NCBI RefSeq assembly: GCF_988243305.1
Contig: NZ_OZ547136.1
DNA length: 64,000 nucleotides
Reading direction: 5' to 3' (one strand)
The notes under the pieces are model-generated. The model ran no database searches. It saw only the letters and a program-made list of their open reading frames with translations, and had not been told where the DNA came from. The position numbers and the translations under genes were made by a program. Below, one piece after another: positions 26,211-31,284 of this stretch; the stretch's first letter is position 1, and every line of letters begins with the position of its first letter.

Positions 26211-28157
26211 TCAGCAACGGCTTAAATCAGCCTGCGCCTGAGCCAGTTTTTCTGCCGCCTGACGTAACGGTTCCATCAACGGCATGGTCCGTGCTGGAGC
26301 ATGAAGGCGGAATCGCTGCAACTCTGTCGCACCGACAGTCAGCGCCGATTCCAGCCGATGTCGTTTGGCGGCCATTTTTGCCATTACCGCTTGTCTGTCT
26401 GCAGGCGTTACCGCTTCGTTCGGCCTGAAAACAAAACGGCGTTCGCAACTCGCTTTCCAGTCGATAACCGCCTGGGTCAGATGATCACCAAAACCTTTTA
26501 CTTGCTTAACGCTCCGTCGGGTAACGTCTGCCGCCGTTTCAATACCAAAGGACCGTAACGCCGCTTTACGCGCAGGGCCAACGCCGGGAATAGAGGCAAC
26601 ATCAATAAAAAATCCCTCCAGAAACTTCTGCTTCTGCCGTTCCCTTGCGGTGTCCTGAAGTGCTGCCAGATCGCGCTTTTCTTCTTCCGGTAACCCAAGA
26701 ATTTCGTCCTTCATTTTTTCGAGCATCGTCCGTTTGGCGATAAAACCTTCCAGCCCGCCCAACCGTTGGATCTGGCTGACTAAATGGTCATAGTCCATTT
26801 TCGCGCGATTAAACGCCTCACGGCGTTGCTGGATTTCTGCTTTGTACGCTTTGCTTGTCAGGCTGCCAATAATCCAGATAGCCGCCAGCACAGGAACCAA
26901 AATAATATAACGCGGTTCTGCCTGAAGGCCGCAAAGCAACAGCGATAACGCTGACAGTGCGATCTCAATCAGAATGATGTATTCGCGCCGTAACAGGCCT
27001 AAAGGAAGCGGCCTGCCAGTCAGTTGGAAATGATCGGGTAATGGCAGTTGCAATGCTGGCGGTGCTACTGACGCCATCACCATCGCCCAGACTTTCGCCA
27101 GCACAAAATCACCGCTGGTGGTAATGACCTCTTCGCCGAGATCAATAAAATAGATAACGCCTTGATTATCCAGCGCACACCACGGGCAGTCAGTCAAATG
27201 ACCGGGGTAAACATGCATTGCCGAAACGGTACATTTCTTTAACTGTTGGCGTAGTAAATCAAGTGCCGCAACCCACGCTTTTGCCGTCGGACGCCCGGTT
27301 GCCACGCCACTTTCCGTGAATGCCTGCTGAAACATGGTTTCAACATCGCCCGGTAACATCGACAGCGGAATAGATCGTGGCGGCGGTTTTAAACCACGTC
27401 GCTGATTATCTGACGCGTAGGCATAACGGAAATGGGCAATATCCGTCTCCAGTGCATTACCCGCATCAGAGACAAGCGGTACACCGGAATAAGGATGCCG
27501 CCCACCAAACAAGACGTGAAAAATCAGCAACGCAAGGCCAAAATTATCGTGATTCGCGGTGCGTTCAAAGCCGACAAATGATGGCAAGGTTTGCAGCTCT
27601 GGCGGCGTAAAATGCGACACGCCGACTTCGCATAAATGCAGCGTGCCATTGGCGTTAATCTGAAAGGAGTCGCTATCAATCAACACCACTTTGCTGTCAC
27701 GGCCTACCATAAAGCTGTTCTGGTTTACGTCACCCACGACATGCCCGTGCTCGTGAACCGTAGCAAAAGATGAAGCAATATTGCGCGCAACATAGAGTAG
27801 AAAATCCCACGCACAATGAGGGTAACGTTGGCGACGATGTGCCGGGCTATAGATCATATGAATCGGTTCTTTACCAGAAACTTTTGGCATCATAAAACCG
27901 ATAACCTTTCCGCCTCGTCCACCGTGAAGCGTTGCCTGCGGCCAGGCGACATAATTCAACAATTGCGCGTCAGCTGTCGCAGCCATAAAGGCAAGTTTGT
28001 CCTGTTTTAAGGCGGGTGGCGGCGTGTGATAAATCTTGGCGACACTATCGACAAACTCCTCGATATCATAAACCGCGCCTTCGCCACCTTTTCCCAGTTC
28101 ACGCCCGAGAGTGGTCAATTCACCTGTCGATGTAAATACTTTTATATTTGTCTTCAT
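26211..28157 (-). CDS. yegI: Membrane-associated Ser/Thr protein kinase-like protein YegI (N-terminal kinase-like domain, two predicted TM helices, C-terminal helix-hairpin-helix region)
   Basis: 648-aa ORF. Gly-rich loop LGKGGEGAV (res 21-29), candidate catalytic region HGHVVGDVNQN (137-147) and LIDSDS (159-164). Hydrophobic stretches at res ~393-433 (YIILIEIALSALSLLLCG / YIILVPVLAAIWIIGSL). HhH-like motifs IPGVGPARKAALRSFGIETAADV and VKGFGDHLTQAV (res ~521-565). Confidence 0.85.
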   Translation of the reverse strand: MKTNIKVFTSTGELTTLGRELGKGGEGAVYDIEEFVDSVAKIYHTPPPALKQDKLAFMAATADAQLLNYVAWPQATLHGGRGGKVIGFMMPKVSGKEPIHMIYSPAHRRQRYPHCAWDFLLYVARNIASSFATVHEHGHVVGDVNQNSFMVGRDSKVVLIDSDSFQINANGTLHLCEVGVSHFTPPELQTLPSFVGFERTANHDNFGLALLIFHVLFGGRHPYSGVPLVSDAGNALETDIAHFRYAYASDNQRRGLKPPPRSIPLSMLPGDVETMFQQAFTESGVATGRPTAKAWVAALDLLRQQLKKCTVSAMHVYPGHLTDCPWCALDNQGVIYFIDLGEEVITTSGDFVLAKVWAMVMASVAPPALQLPLPDHFQLTGRPLPLGLLRREYIILIEIALSALSLLLCGLQAEPRYIILVPVLAAIWIIGSLTSKAYKAEIQQRREAFNRAKMDYDHLVSQIQRLGGLEGFIAKRTMLEKMKDEILGLPEEEKRDLAALQDTARERQKQKFLEGFFIDVASIPGVGPARKAALRSFGIETAADVTRRSVKQVKGFGDHLTQAVIDWKASCERRFVFRPNEAVTPADRQAVMAKMAAKRHRLESALTVGATELQRFRLHAPARTMPLMEPLRQAAEKLAQAQADLSRC

Positions 28158-28357
28158 AATGTTTTAAGGGCAGTCATATTATATTTTAATGAATAATAAC
28201 ACTGCCCATTATAATTATTTCCATATTGGAAGAGTCCCACTCAAGAATAAAAATGATAATGCAATTTCATCAGGATACAATTCAATTCCAACCTGATAAT
28301 GATTCACTTCCACAGATTTTTTGCTAACTTTTACTACACAGGGATTCTGGAAAAAAG

Positions 28358-28819
28358 ATGAAAAAGATATTACTTATGTTGAGTCTGCTATTTTTTACTA
28401 CCGCGGGCTTTAGTGAAGTTTCGGATACGTTAGTGACGGGAGGTTATGATAAACAAGCGATGTCTGACGCCATTCAACATGCGCGGAAAGAAACCGATCA
28501 ATTCATCGAAATTATGAATAAAAAAGATGCCGATACTTTCGCGGTCAAAGCCCCGATAACCGATCACGGAAGAACAGAGCATTTCTGGCTTACGGATGTC
28601 ACTTATTCTAACGGCATGTTTATTGGCGTAATAAGCAATGACCCTGGTATTGTTACAAACGTAGAATATGGTCAGGAGTGGAAAATCAAGAAAGAAGATA
28701 TTTCAGACTGGATGTATACGCGCGGGGATAAAATTTACGGCGGTTATACCATTGATCCTTTATTAGTCACCTATCCAAAAGAAGAAGCCGACGAGCTAAG
28801 AGCAAAATTAGTTCGCTAA
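28358..28819 (+). CDS. yegJ: Secreted/periplasmic DUF2314-family protein YegJ
   Basis: 153-aa ORF with an N-terminal signal peptide (MKKILLMLSLLFFTTAGFS); divergent from yegI and convergent with pphC. Confidence 0.75.
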   Translation: MKKILLMLSLLFFTTAGFSEVSDTLVTGGYDKQAMSDAIQHARKETDQFIEIMNKKDADTFAVKAPITDHGRTEHFWLTDVTYSNGMFIGVISNDPGIVTNVEYGQEWKIKKEDISDWMYTRGDKIYGGYTIDPLLVTYPKEEADELRAKLVR

Positions 28820-28846
28820 CCAGCCATTATATTGATTGCTTAAACT

Positions 28847-28874
28847 GGCGGTTGAACTGTTGTCTTCAACCGCC
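28847..28874. terminator. Perfect 10-bp stem hairpin between convergent yegJ and pphC (candidate bidirectional terminator)
   Basis: ggcggttgaa-ctgttgtc-ttcaaccgcc read directly; lies in the 64-bp gap between the two stop codons. No strong U-tract on either side. Confidence 0.5.
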
Positions 28875-28883
28875 ATGCGATGT

Positions 28884-29645
28884 TCATTCTGTCCACAGCG
28901 CCAGTGCCAACGTTTTATCATCATCCGTACGCTCGTTTACCGCCGGGCTGGACAAAAACTGCTTTAACAATTCAGGTAATAAATCGAGTTGTTCCTGCGT
29001 TGCTGACGCCAGTCCATTGAAAAACGGGGTAAAAAAAGGCACATGCGGAGAATTATTCAACATATTTAACGCCAGCCTCTGAATACCATCCGTAAATGCT
29101 GCAACTTTATGCGCACGCTCAGTACTGGTGTAAGTTTCCAGTCTGGAAACAGCATCGTCATCGGTAATGAAGTGCGTCATGTTGGCATATTCACCCACCA
29201 TCGGCGTGAGAGGCAATTGCAGACCGTGACCCAAATCTACCACCATGCCGCCATCGCCAATCTGCATAATCAAGGTGCCGTCAGGCGATGAAATCAGTCC
29301 CAGAAATGTACAGGCAAAATCGCGAACCGCTAATTCTTTGGCCTCTGCCTCGGCAAAAAGTCGCTGACGAATGGTCAGCACAATATCCGTGGCGAGGACA
29401 TCATTAAGCCCCAATTCCCCACCCTGCACTTTTTGCGACATATAAGCCATCGCTTCATTGACGGCGAGCATCGCGCCTTCGCCACCCTGCGAGACGCTGC
29501 CTGCGCCATCAGCGACAAATACCGACAATAATGGCTGCTGGTCATTTAACCAGGCAACCTGCATCTGGCAGGCATCCTGGCAAGGCAAGTCCGCGCTGAT
29601 GTGCGACGTTCCAACGGTTGATGCATAGACCAGACGCCAGCTCAC
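28884..29645 (-). CDS. pphC: PP2C-family Ser/Thr protein phosphatase PphC (YegK)
   Basis: 253-aa ORF with PP2C-like metal-binding aspartate motifs ([20 protein letters not shown]). Start codon overlaps the yegL stop by 4 nt. Confidence 0.85.
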
Positions 29646-30301
29646 ACTGACGTCCAGCCTTTTGGCGCTTCCAGCACAACTTCCGTTCCCGGCGTGGAGC
29701 GGGAAACCGAACGCAGCGAACTGGATAACCAGCTAAACAGTTCACGGAATTGTAATCCCTGCAGTGGCAAAGGCTGACGAACGCTGATTTGTGCCAAAGT
29801 CTTCATATCCGCCCCCTGAACACCGATGGAAAAGAAGGCAAACTTCTTATCTTCTTCCCCCTGAAACACTTTGTTGGCGGCAGCCTGCCACTCATCGGTT
29901 GGAGCGCCATCGGTGATCAGGAAAATCCACGGGCGATAATAGGAAATACCATTGGCGCGATACTCACGTTTGCGCTCCTCAACCATATCCAGGGCTTTGG
30001 TAATGGCGGCCCCCATTGGTGTATCGCCCTGGGCAAACAGGATGGGCGGGAAAAAATTAGCGGCGCTGGTAAAGGGTTGTTCCACATGCACCGGGCCGAA
30101 CGTCACAATACCGAGTTCCACTCTTTTTAAGGCCAGCGGATCGGCAAGCAGTTCATCGCGAAAGGTAACCAATCCGGCGTTAAGTTCATTAATAGGTCTA
30201 CCACTCATCGAACCAGAAACATCCAACAGCAAAATGCAGGGGCAACGTGGTTCCGGGTTACTGGCAAAATCGCTGGTGGCAAACGTGATTTGTTCGCTCA
30301 T
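29642..30301 (-). CDS. yegL: von Willebrand factor A (vWA) domain protein YegL, TerY-like
   Basis: 219-aa ORF with a MIDAS motif DVSGSMSG (res 27-34) and conserved v[11 protein letters not shown]. Confidence 0.85.
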
Positions 30302-30480
30302 AAGAAATCCTTTCTTAGAGAATTATTGAGGTCCGGTATCATACCGATTGCAATAATGAAATAAGAGCAAACGAAGAAACTTTCAGAATTAGGCCCGGCG
30401 GCGCAGAAAATTTTGCTATTCGCCTCGCAAGAACGGAGAGCCGTCGATTGACACTAAGGGCGGAGTGACATAATTTCAGG

Positions 30481-30628
30481 AGTGAGGGTTAGGGAGAGGT
30501 TTCTCCCTCCCCCTGGTGTTCTTAGTAAGCCTGGAAGCTAATCACTAAGAGTATCTCCAGTATGATGACGTGCTTCATCATAACCCTTTCCTTATTAAAA
30601 GCCCTCTTCTCCGGGAGAGGGTTTCCCG
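30481..30628 (+). ncRNA. sibA: Sib-family antisense sRNA (antitoxin), copy 1; boundaries approximate
   Basis: Plus-strand region fully antisense to the ibs ORF, preceded by a CATAAT -10-like hexamer (30469-30474) and ending at a GC-rich hairpin plus T-rich tract (gccctcttctccgggagagggtttcccgttt, ~30601-30628). Confidence 0.5.
30522..30581 (-). CDS. ibsA: Ibs-family type I toxin peptide, copy 1 (19 aa: MMKHVIILEILLVISFQAY)
   Basis: Minus-strand ATGATGAAG...TAA ORF read by hand; matches the Ibs hydrophobic peptide pattern MMK-h(15)-AY. Confidence 0.6.
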   Translation of the reverse strand: MMKHVIILEILLVISFQAY

Positions 30629-30815
30629 TTTCAGCGTCCCGCTGAAATCGTCGGCTTACCTCCTTTCGCCCTGAATGCAGTCTATCGCTAACGCGTGAAC
30701 AAAATAGTTTCCTCTGTGATTATTGCGTAACGACTCGCAAAGAATATTTGCTGGCAGGATCGCAGACTGAAAAGCCTGCAGATTGACAATCTTATCGTGA
30801 AGGCATAATTTCAGG

Positions 30816-30958
30816 AGTGAGGGTAGAGCGGGGTTTCCCCCGCCCTGGTAGTCTTAGTAAGCCGGGAAGCTTATGACTAAGAGCACCACGATGATGATCC
30901 ACTTCATCATGACCCTTTCCTTATTTAAGGCCCCTTCCTCGGGAGGGGCTTTCCCGTT
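30816..30958 (+). ncRNA. Sib-family antisense sRNA, copy 2; boundaries approximate
   Basis: Same arrangement as copy 1: CATAAT at 30804-30809, hairpin ggccccttcctcgggaggggcttt followed by a T-rich tract ending ~30958. Confidence 0.5.
30854..30910 (-). CDS. Ibs-family type I toxin peptide, copy 2 (18 aa: MMKWIIIVVLLVISFPAY)
   Basis: Minus-strand ORF read by hand inside repeat unit 2. Confidence 0.6.
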   Translation of the reverse strand: MMKWIIIVVLLVISFPAY

Positions 30959-31143
30959 TCAGCGTCCCGCTGAAATCGTCGGCTTACCTCCTTTCGCCCT
31001 GAATGCAGTCTATCGCTAACGCGTGAACAAAATAGTTTCCTCTGTGATTATTGCGTAACGACTCGCAAAGAATATTTGCTGGCAGGATCGCAGACTGCAA
31101 AGCCTGCAGATTGACAATCTTATCGTGAAGGCATAATTTCAGG

Positions 31144-31284
31144 AGTGAGGGTAGAGCGGGGTTTCCCCCGCCCTGGTAGTCTTAGTATGCTGGGTAGCTA
31201 ATCACTAAGAGCACCACGATGATGAGTAGCTTCATCATGACCCTTTCCTTATTTATGGCCCCTTCCTCGGGAGGGGCTTTCCCG
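31144..31284 (+). ncRNA. sibB: Sib-family antisense sRNA, copy 3; boundaries approximate
   Basis: Same arrangement: CATAAT at 31132-31137, hairpin and T-tract ending ~31284. Confidence 0.5.
31182..31238 (-). CDS. ibsB: Ibs-family type I toxin peptide, copy 3 (18 aa: MMKLLIIVVLLVISYPAY)
   Basis: Minus-strand ORF read by hand inside repeat unit 3; closest to IbsB as I recall it. Confidence 0.6.
   Translation of the reverse strand: MMKLLIIVVLLVISYPAY

Follow-up and report, generated by a model that had tools for sequence, protein, structure and literature searches.

The yegL, pphC and yegI genes of Escherichia coli, which encode a vWA protein, a PP2C phosphatase and a Ser/Thr kinase, form a module that is under study as one of the few Ser/Thr kinase-phosphatase pairs of this species. 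In the stretch of DNA analysed here (64,000 nucleotides of contig NZ_OZ547136.1, assembly GCF_988243305.1, hereafter the window), a fourth gene, yegJ, lies within this triad, which raises the questions of whether it belongs to the module, how it arrived there and what its presence means for the expression of the kinase gene. The arrangement itself is already known as a within-species polymorphism (Rajagopalan & Dworkin 2018, 2020; Göpel 2026). In K strains, yegJ separates pphC from yegI and runs opposite to them; in B strains and O157:H7, the two genes share a 4-nt ATGA overlap, and it has been proposed that the insertion may disrupt co-ordinated expression (Rajagopalan, Nagle & Dworkin 2018; Rajagopalan & Dworkin 2020; 10.1101/303594, 10.1101/819920). 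The core observation is thus in print and no field is changed by what follows; the additions are the borders of the inserted cassette (28104-28892), the gene ends that it replaced, the polarity of the change from outgroups, the Imm34/lipoprotein nature of the YegJ family and a prevalence that extends beyond 'only K strains', at 35% of 5426 genomes.

The locus is laid out as follows.

26211-28157, minus strand: yegI, Ser/Thr kinase, 648 aa (from the ORF listing and the sequence)
28104-28892: cassette, 789 bp, 37.9% GC against 51.7% for the window, standing in for the 53-bp pphC/yegI overlap junction (net +736 bp)
28158-28357: yegI-yegJ spacer, exactly 200 bp, 30% GC, between divergent genes; published H-NS target and RNA polymerase sigma-70 binding site (Shimada 2014, PMC3946193)
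28173-28202, minus strand: yegI promoter-like site, GTGTTA-18-TATGAC, read from the sequence
28253-28281, plus strand: yegJ promoter-like site, ATGATA-17-TACAAT
28358-28819, plus strand: yegJ, DUF2314/Imm34 protein, 153 aa, with a signal-peptide-like segment (aa 1 to ~20) and an ExxW motif (E74-W77)
28820-28883: yegJ/pphC gap, exactly 64 bp, between convergent 3′ ends
28846-28875: inverted repeat or hairpin, arms 28846-28856 and 28865-28875
28884-29645, minus strand: pphC, PP2C phosphatase, 253 aa
29642-30301, minus strand: yegL, vWA protein, first gene of the triad, with a 4-bp overlap with pphC

The original prediction had placed yegJ on the plus strand between two minus-strand genes and behind a divergent AT-rich spacer of about 200 bp, and the ORF listing and the sequence bear out both statements. 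PphC and YegL are recognized by Pfam as PP2C_2 (1.5e-52) and VWA (6.4e-10), respectively. In YegI, Pfam did not detect a kinase domain and returned only a weak helix-hairpin-helix match (HHH_5, residues 517-553); the kinase domain appears as weak PADLOC/NCBIfam matches, and kinase activity of YegI has been published (bioRxiv 10.1101/819920). Neither PADLOC nor NCBIfam placed YegJ, PphC or YegL in an informative family. A search for known RNA families between 26000 and 31500 found none in the cassette and matched just three SIB antitoxin RNAs, which lie downstream of yegL.

The reading that we favour, with a probability of about 0.75, is that horizontal transfer brought in 28104-28892 as a low-GC cassette, which replaced the junction of a translationally coupled yegL-pphC-yegI operon, with yegJ as a passenger and yegI uncoupled. 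The cassette would have brought four things: yegJ on the opposite strand, encoding an exported DUF2314/Imm34 protein; a 200-bp AT-rich spacer with promoter-like hexamers in both directions, for yegJ and, newly, for yegI; a foreign 18-codon 5′ end of yegI without a Shine-Dalgarno sequence; and a new 3′ end of pphC with a conserved 11-bp hairpin beyond it. Transcripts of yegL-pphC would then mostly end at the hairpin or within a 726-nt untranslated antisense stretch, and yegI would be left to its own silenced promoter, so that the kinase:phosphatase ratio would no longer be fixed.

The borders were set by aligning the junction with those of yegJ-less strains and outgroups, and the BLAST span of the region is 4401 bp in yegJ-carrying against 3665 bp in yegJ-less strains. 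The composition of yegJ stands apart from that of its surroundings, its GC3 being 0.40 against 0.51-0.60 in the neighbouring genes. Each flanking gene has one of its ends in cassette DNA. The first 18 codons of yegI (28104-28157) take the place of 16 ancestral codons, and the N-terminus that they encode, MKTNIKVFTSTGELTTL, agrees with the family consensus, in which GRELGKGGEG is preceded by a hydrophobic residue that is L or I at most loci; this 5′ end is therefore foreign but genuinely that of a yegI, from another triad. No Shine-Dalgarno sequence precedes the yegI ATG in this allele. At the other border, the stop and the last two sense codons of pphC (28884-28892) lie inside the cassette, and the protein ends in ...WTE instead of the ancestral ...WLP. 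The cassette of the window is ~94.4% identical to that of K-12 and 99.7% identical to that of strain 789, while its flanks are mosaic and closer to a yegJ-less strain than to K-12, which suggests that the cassette has spread by recombination.

The triad is present in 5417 of 5426 complete E. coli genomes and the yegJ segment in 1924 (35%); the K-12 arrangement is therefore a derived minority allele. In yegJ-less strains such as O157:H7, pphC and yegI overlap by 4 bp, and the same ATGA/GTGA overlap is found in Escherichia sp. E1V33, MOD1-EC7003, E. whittamii, E. coli E69 and Klebsiella spallanzanii; all six Enterobacteriaceae junctions that were read have it, and none contains yegJ. With each species represented by one genome, a scan yielded 79 triad loci, none of which has a YegJ match. 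In every one, yegL and pphC are co-directional and adjacent, and yegI comes directly next except at four loci: L055, L056 and L076, which have no YegI match, and L075, where yegI lies ~1.25 kb downstream. Homologues of YegJ occur in eight other genomic contexts, never beside a triad; in Superficieibacter electus and a related metagenome scaffold, the order is yegD-yegJ-...-mdtA, that is, the same chromosomal interval with no triad. These sequence comparisons demonstrate that the yegJ arrangement is a derived insertion into a contiguous triad. The opposite polarity, a yegJ-containing ancestor from which the contiguous operon arose elsewhere through deletion, is a formal possibility, and one strain in which IS1 has replaced most of yegJ illustrates that losses happen. 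Yet the exact ATGA/GTGA junction and the N-terminal codons are common to yegJ-less E. coli, other Escherichia and Klebsiella, and the GC content of the cassette is foreign; deletion could not have recreated the overlap together with the ancestral codons, and this polarity is effectively refuted.

No terminal inverted repeats are found at 28104/28892, nor an integrase or IS, and a transposable element, MITE or integron cassette was rejected on the terminal inverted repeat, target-site duplication, transposase and attC criteria. Flanking direct repeats are limited to a 9-mer, TTGTCTTCA, at 28148 and 28860, which is expected by chance and imperfect in K-12. A plasmid or phage origin was likewise rejected, tblastn having returned no phage matches and no clear match on a true plasmid: two 'E. 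coli plasmid' records of 4.9 Mb must be mislabelled chromosomes, one 365-kb record has a partial match, and the other plasmid matches are distant DUF2314 genes of <43% identity. Nor is the cassette as a whole shared with Superficieibacter, where homology covers only the ribosome-binding site and coding sequence (28329-28819, 74%), to the exclusion of the promoter spacer and the hairpin. No genome outside E. coli was found to carry yegJ between pphC and yegI; of the YegJ proteins from other organisms whose genomic context is available, the closest has 75% identity. A more specific scenario, which we regard as possible but hold only tentatively, is that an orphan, periplasm-facing Imm34-type gene was gained by homologous recombination from an unsampled triad donor and made the module into two independently controlled, H-NS-silenced units. 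A donor triad already carrying the cassette would account for the foreign but genuine 5′ end of yegI. If this is so, the locus would represent a natural regulatory polymorphism of a TerY-P-like (possibly anti-phage/stress) system in a third of E. coli, and the cytoplasmic YegJ-RNase E interaction would be non-physiological, since native YegJ would be exported.

What the cassette means for transcription depends on the two intergenic regions. In the 64-bp gap, the original prediction had noted a perfect 10-bp hairpin at 28847-28874; the gap length and the perfect pairing hold, while the stem is one pair longer, an inverted repeat perfect over 11 bp (TGGCGGTTGAA, 28846-28856; TTCAACCGCCA, 28865-28875) with an 8-nt loop. 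Six of its pairs are G-C, as in the GC-rich stem-loop of an intrinsic terminator, and it contributes most of the minimum free energy of the gap (~-20 kcal/mol; folding z-scores -2.9 on the plus and -4.1 on the minus strand). An 11-bp perfect stem was reached in none of 2000 shuffles of the spacer and in two of 500 shuffles of the 789-bp cassette, and the repeat is thus beyond chance. Over five haplotypes, the stem is invariant (0/22 variable positions against 9/42 outside the stem; Fisher p = 0.016). No U-tract follows it on either side, the stem being followed by GUUUAAGC on the pphC-sense (minus) strand and by UGCGAUGUUC on the yegJ-sense strand (UGCGAUGU on plus); a terminator scan did not call the hairpin, which falls outside the simple definition of an intrinsic terminator and is probably a transcript-end or stabiliser element without a U-tract.

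The spacer on the other side of yegJ is reported to be bound in vitro by sigma-70 holoenzyme and by H-NS, with divergent promoters predicted under the entry yegI <HNS> yegJ (Shimada 2014, PMC3946193). The promoter-like hexamers of yegJ are identical to those published (PMC3946193), whereas those of yegI are weaker in the window allele than in K-12 (TTGTTA-18-TATAAC; PMC3946193), and a promoter scan did not call the site in the window allele. Promoter-like hexamers are not in excess in the region (9 against 6.6 +/- 2.4 in shuffles). H-NS binding and de-repression are known from the literature for K-12 and for EAEC 042, and not for the strain of the window; yegJ rises 223-fold in delta-hns EAEC 042 (PMC7582179), and under laboratory conditions the genes of the triad locus show next to no expression (10.1101/303594; PMC13232886).

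Judged from the sequence, the ATGA stop/start coupling of pphC and yegI is certainly lost in the cassette allele, and transcriptional uncoupling of the two genes is likely. The principal challenge to the favoured reading is that the triad might still be one transcription unit, with RNA polymerase reading from pphC through a weak hairpin and antisense yegJ into yegI, in which case the insertion would alter only translational coupling and add antisense interference with yegJ. The hairpin has no U-tract and was not called by the terminator scan, so that read-through into yegI is possible; the lack of a Shine-Dalgarno sequence and the weak promoter match in the window allele mean that yegI could still depend on upstream transcription; and yegI has been kept as an intact 648-aa ORF in yegJ-carrying strains. 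On the other hand, variation spares the hairpin stem but not its flanks, the spacer binds sigma-70 holoenzyme in vitro and yegI is given as a single-gene operon (PMC3946193). The read-through RNA would run untranslated for 726 nt over an H-NS-bound AT-rich tract, and untranslated RNA of this kind is a classic substrate for Rho-dependent polarity. Against the favoured reading, this RNA has only two C>G, Rho-loading-like stretches, both modest, and these are not decisive. We consider a single transcription unit unlikely, at about one chance in a few. The earlier claim that the kinase is not co-transcribed is plausible: the 4-bp coupling is destroyed and a yegI promoter is predicted in the polymerase-bound spacer (PMC3946193), but read-through past a hairpin without a U-tract is possible.

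YegJ belongs to DUF2314 (PF10077; residues 33-146, E = 2.3e-25 with a score of 89.7 bits, the cut-off being 22), also described as Imm34, a predicted immunity family of polymorphic toxin systems with a conserved ExxW motif and C-terminal Asp (Zhang et al. 2012, PMC3482391); E74 and W77 (EHFW) and D117 do not vary among 28 homologues. Its AF2 model has a pLDDT of 86.6, residues 1-22 being low. The N-terminus, MKKILLMLSLLFFTTAGFSE, is a signal-peptide-like segment in which MKK, as a charged n-region, precedes a hydrophobic h-region, ILLMLSLLFFTTAGF, and an N-terminus of this type occurs in all 28 homologues. A lipobox Cys is present in 23 of the 28, which together with the signal points to an extracytoplasmic family; E. 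coli YegJ has Phe (TTT) in that column and would be either a substrate of signal peptidase I or anchored by its signal. The proposal of a secreted protein embedded in the locus is thus reinforced. Likeness to toxin-linked Imm34 loci is seen in S. electus, whose orthologue lies beside Rhs fragment, SUKH_5, Tli3, Tle3_C and Imm52 genes, and the Opitutaceae context is a tandem small-protein array, while five other YegJ loci have no toxin context. In contrast to such loci, E. coli yegJ has no adjacent toxin gene, its neighbours being yegI and pphC. Conservation within the YegJ subfamily is unusually high, the E. coli and Opitutaceae proteins sharing 50-60% identity, and the gene mostly stands as a lone lipoprotein gene in unrelated surroundings, which leaves immunity a putative function.

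Two other views of YegJ have to be weighed against this background. One, speculated by Göpel et al. 2026, would have it serve the kinase/phosphatase module as an accessory within one pathway and be recruited for that role, which would fit its physical embedding in the triad locus and the strong rise of yegD, the gene adjoining yegI, on yegJ overexpression (PMC13232886). It is very improbable given that a YegJ homologue accompanies 0/79 triads elsewhere and a triad 0/8 YegJ contexts, that 65% of E. coli have the triad without yegJ, that the composition of yegJ is foreign and its orientation opposite, and that YegJ is predicted to be exported whereas PphC is cytoplasmic. The same synteny settles the alternative left by the original prediction, accessory or unrelated insertion, in favour of the latter; YegJ is most likely unrelated to the triad, an orphan immunity-type or periplasmic binding protein. 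The other view treats YegJ as a cytoplasmic RNase E-binding regulator, on the strength of two-hybrid and pull-down results with the N-terminal domain of RNase E and of transcriptome effects on overproduction (PMC13232886). However, the two-hybrid fragments comprised residues 16-153 behind T25 (PMC13232886), which truncates the signal peptide and forces a cytoplasmic location; the typical n/h-region signal and the lipobox Cys of most homologues argue for export, and the Cpx/Psp induction and membrane leakage seen on overproduction are expected of an overloaded exported or membrane-anchored protein. We therefore hold this view to be rather improbable, if less so than a recruited accessory, and regard the signal peptide and the lipoprotein homologues as a caution against YegJ as a cytoplasmic RNase E partner.

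In K-12, the reference E. coli, the kinase gene is no longer translationally coupled to that of its phosphatase and lies downstream of a foreign promoter region under H-NS silencing, a position that may explain the difficulty of detecting expression. B strains or O157, which carry the native operon, would be the choice for work on the triad.

Set beside known systems, the cassette resembles the H-NS-silenced, acquired AT-rich islets of E. coli in its low GC, its annotation as an H-NS target and the 223-fold de-repression in delta-hns, and differs from them in being very small (789 bp, one gene), in lying inside an operon and not at a tRNA or intergenic hotspot, and in having no integrase, IS or terminal repeats. 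TerY-P triads combine a vWA protein, a PP2C phosphatase and a Ser/Thr kinase (Anantharaman et al. 2012, summarised in PMC11090510). PADLOC TerY-P defence models matched no triad protein, and neither the C-terminal zinc ribbon nor the OB-fold of TerY-P kinases (PMC11090510) was detected in YegI by Pfam. The three domain types nevertheless match, and the ancestral allele is a co-directional tight operon of vWA, PP2C and kinase genes, which in the window is interrupted by the 789-bp cassette instead of forming one contiguous operon. With the K-12 locus described by Rajagopalan and Dworkin, the window shares both genes and order, and represents a different allele of it.

The stretch from ~24.8 to 31.4 kb of the window corresponds to the E. 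coli yegD-yegI-yegJ-pphC-yegL-(ibs/sib)-mdtA region, and the ORF listing and the sequence bear out the placement of yegJ on the plus strand between two minus-strand genes of the triad, yegI (Ser/Thr kinase) and pphC (PP2C phosphatase), the third being yegL (vWA). The genes, as located by these two sources, and the hairpin are:

26211-28157, minus strand: yegI
28358-28819, plus strand: yegJ, 153 aa
28884-29645, minus strand: pphC
29642-30301, minus strand: yegL
28846-28856 and 28865-28875: hairpin arms TGGCGGTTGAA and TTCAACCGCCA, perfect 11-bp stem, 8-nt loop

Pfam agrees that YegJ is a DUF2314 protein and assigns PphC to PP2C_2 and YegL to VWA. The AT-rich region between yegI and yegJ, predicted at ~200 bp, is exactly 200 bp long with 30% GC, and yegJ and pphC lie exactly 64 bp apart; the hairpin of the original prediction is present, with a perfect stem of 11 rather than 10 bp.

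Of 5426 complete E. coli genomes, 5417 contain the 4.4-kb locus but only 1924 (35%) the 726-bp yegJ segment, showing that yegJ is a presence/absence polymorphism within the species. Its carriers include strain 789, isolated from turkey septicaemia, together with an O78:H4 APEC strain, O169:H41 and EAEC strains, and the cassette is therefore not restricted to K strains. In yegJ-less strains, among them O157:H7 Vac_07.1 and M25631H, the annotated yegL, pphC and yegI successively overlap by 4 bp. Junction alignment places the cassette borders at 28104 and 28892, where 53 bp of ancestral sequence have been exchanged for a 789-bp segment of 37.9% GC; this adds 736 bp, precisely the BLAST length difference. 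The replaced stretch includes the first yegI codons (new N-terminus MKTNIKVFTSTGELTTLGRELGKG versus ancestral MKPTLYTATGECVTPGRELGKG) and the last two codons and stop of pphC (WTE* versus WLP*). The cassette has also been secondarily lost or disrupted, as IS1 stands in place of almost all of it in PCP06021 (L093, 2248-2945), leaving only the last 90 bp, and IS1B lies within the locus in strain 64EVA (match H4).

The contiguous operon is ancestral and the yegJ arrangement derived, because the triad is contiguous in distant bacteria, other Escherichia and Klebsiella, and the latter two share the overlap junction. A scan with PphC as query, using one genome per bacterial species, recovered 79 triad loci, spread over Proteobacteria, Actinobacteria, Firmicutes, Planctomycetes, Chloroflexi, Cyanobacteria and further groups. 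The yegL and pphC homologues are adjacent and co-directional in all 79, and a yegI homologue comes directly next in all but four, a YegI match being absent in three and lying ~1.25 kb downstream in one. The ATGA or GTGA stop/start overlap of yegJ-less E. coli recurs in four further Escherichia lineages (sp. E1V33, MOD1-EC7003, E. whittamii and E. coli E69) and in Klebsiella spallanzanii. An origin of the contiguous operon by deletion is ruled out, as this junction could not be recreated in that way. Having been offered as either an accessory or an unrelated insertion, yegJ proves to be the latter: the synteny comparison shows the polymorphism, and tblastn with YegJ gave no match in any of the 79 triad loci. 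In Escherichia sp. E1V33 (L011, 4521-6447), the tblastn match to yegI breaks into two overlapping segments that lie in different frames (q7-516 and q508-648), which suggests that the kinase gene of this yegJ-less lineage is frameshifted.

Far from being random sequence, the new yegI 5′ end is nearer to the family consensus (F/Y-T-S-x-G ... hydrophobic-L before GRELGKGGEG) than the ancestral E. coli end, from which we infer another triad as its source; no donor triad carrying the cassette was found. Entry was probably by recombination, with crossovers in conserved yegI and pphC sequence. Neither terminal inverted repeats nor a meaningful target duplication were found at the cassette, and carriage by plasmid or phage was rejected, with no match on true plasmids or phages. 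Across yegI, pphC and yegL, the window is 96-100% identical per 200 bp to a yegJ-less strain in most windows, and less close (92-99%) to the yegJ-carrying, K-12-like HB101. The flanks are thus mosaic, implying that recombination transfers the cassette among backgrounds. Within E. coli, pphC (28884-29645) is unusually polymorphic, with 82-98% amino acid identity to the window (L001, L002, L003 and L035) and 200-bp DNA windows dropping to 71-88%, while yegL holds at 98-99%; the whole triad locus is a recombination mosaic.

Translational coupling between pphC and yegI is lost in the window allele, which has no Shine-Dalgarno sequence ahead of yegI. The spacer contains two promoter-like sites:

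28253-28281: yegJ, ATGATA-17-TACAAT
28202-28173: yegI, GTGTTA-18-TATGAC, a weaker site

Such hexamers are overall not above shuffle frequency. Sigma-70 holoenzyme bound the spacer in vitro, with yegJ hexamers identical to those of the window and K-12 yegI hexamers of TTGTTA-18-TATAAC; the same study annotated the spacer as an H-NS target, with yegI given as a single-gene operon (Shimada et al. 2014, PMC3946193). yegJ was up 223-fold in EAEC 042 delta-hns at 37 °C (PMC7582179), and published groups did not detect expression of the triad-locus genes under laboratory conditions (10.1101/303594, 10.1101/819920, PMC13232886). Two transcription units, as originally predicted, are the most likely reading (probability about 0.65-0.7), helped by the Rho/H-NS polarity to be expected where 726 nt of antisense RNA go untranslated. 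An imperfect palindrome of 15 nt (GGGCAGTCATATTAT / ATAATAACACTGCCC, 28168-28182 / 28193-28207) lies over the predicted yegI promoter and could be a regulator operator; both arms are altered, in part symmetrically, in K-12-type alleles (GGGTAG.../...CTAACC).

A perfect 11-bp stem was matched in 0 of 2000 spacer shuffles and 2 of 500 whole-cassette shuffles, and the folding z-scores are -2.9 and -4.1. The stem is the same in all five cassette haplotypes compared, against variation at 9 of the remaining 42 spacer positions (Fisher p = 0.016), which suggests selection on it. No U-tract follows it on either strand, and a terminator scan did not call it. A 15-codon mini-ORF (28887-28840, minus strand), whose ATG overlaps the pphC stop (ATGA), reads through the hairpin. 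In the K-12-type allele its frame is preserved, from a GTG start codon (VSFSWRLKTTIQPPV). The mini-ORF may have arisen by chance or survive from stop/start coupling in the donor.

DUF2314 is Imm34, a predicted polymorphic-toxin immunity protein with an ExxW motif (Zhang et al. 2012, PMC3482391), and E74 and W77 are invariant among the aligned YegJ homologues. The family is extracytoplasmic, since a signal-peptide-like N-terminal segment is present in 28 of 28 aligned homologues and a lipobox Cys in 23. The E. coli residue in that column is Phe, so the family-typical lipidation site has been lost; codons 17-18 are GGC TTT (28406-28411), TTT being one base from TGT. E. coli YegJ is probably either signal-anchored or processed by signal peptidase I. 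Its treatment as cytoplasmic is open to doubt, because the two-hybrid clones of Göpel et al. carried residues 16-153 behind T25 (PMC13232886); Cpx/Psp induction and membrane leakage on overproduction (PMC13232886) are as would be expected of an overloaded exported protein. Our best guess, held with modest confidence, is that YegJ acts as an orphan immunity-type protein or in periplasmic binding. The subfamily stands out for its conservation and in most cases has no toxin neighbour.

The data argue against YegJ acting in the 'same pathway' as the triad, as speculated by Göpel et al. (2026); a triad was found in none of eight genomic contexts of YegJ homologues. The closest non-E. coli YegJ with genomic context (75% identical) occurs in Superficieibacter electus and a related metagenome scaffold (L094), and the next closest (~50-66%) in environmental metagenomes and an Opitutaceae MAG. 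In S. electus and L094, yegJ directly follows yegD, within the yegD-mdtA interval that it also occupies in E. coli, without yegI, pphC or yegL. In S. electus (L004, 7914-11530), an Rhs-repeat fragment adjoins yegJ, followed by SUKH_5/SMI1_KNR4, Tli3, Tle3_C and Imm52 before mdtA, a polyimmunity or orphan toxin island that marks the yegD-mdtA interval of Enterobacteriaceae as a variable hotspot for 'conflict genes'. Between yegL and mdtA, the window encodes three SIB antitoxin RNAs, all of them full-length (Rfam RF00113, 142-146 bits):

30448-30596, plus strand: SIB RNA
30783-30925, plus strand: SIB RNA
31111-31253, plus strand: SIB RNA

Only two ibs toxin genes are annotated there in PCP06021, whose record (L093) spans the whole interval, and the window strain therefore appears to have an additional copy of the ibs/sib type I toxin-antitoxin pair.

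The central finding has been published before: yegJ was described between pphC and yegI in opposite orientation in K strains, and an ATGA overlap was described for B strains and for O157:H7, with co-ordinated expression likely disrupted by yegJ (Rajagopalan, Nagle & Dworkin 2018, 10.1101/303594; Rajagopalan & Dworkin 2020, 10.1101/819920). What the present analysis contributes is where the cassette begins and ends, which arrangement is derived and how common it is, together with the Imm34/lipoprotein character of the YegJ family and its independence from triads. A transcriptional split of the triad is plausible, and the locus would gain modestly in significance if experiments bore out either the regulatory polymorphism or the view of YegJ as an exported, immunity-type protein.
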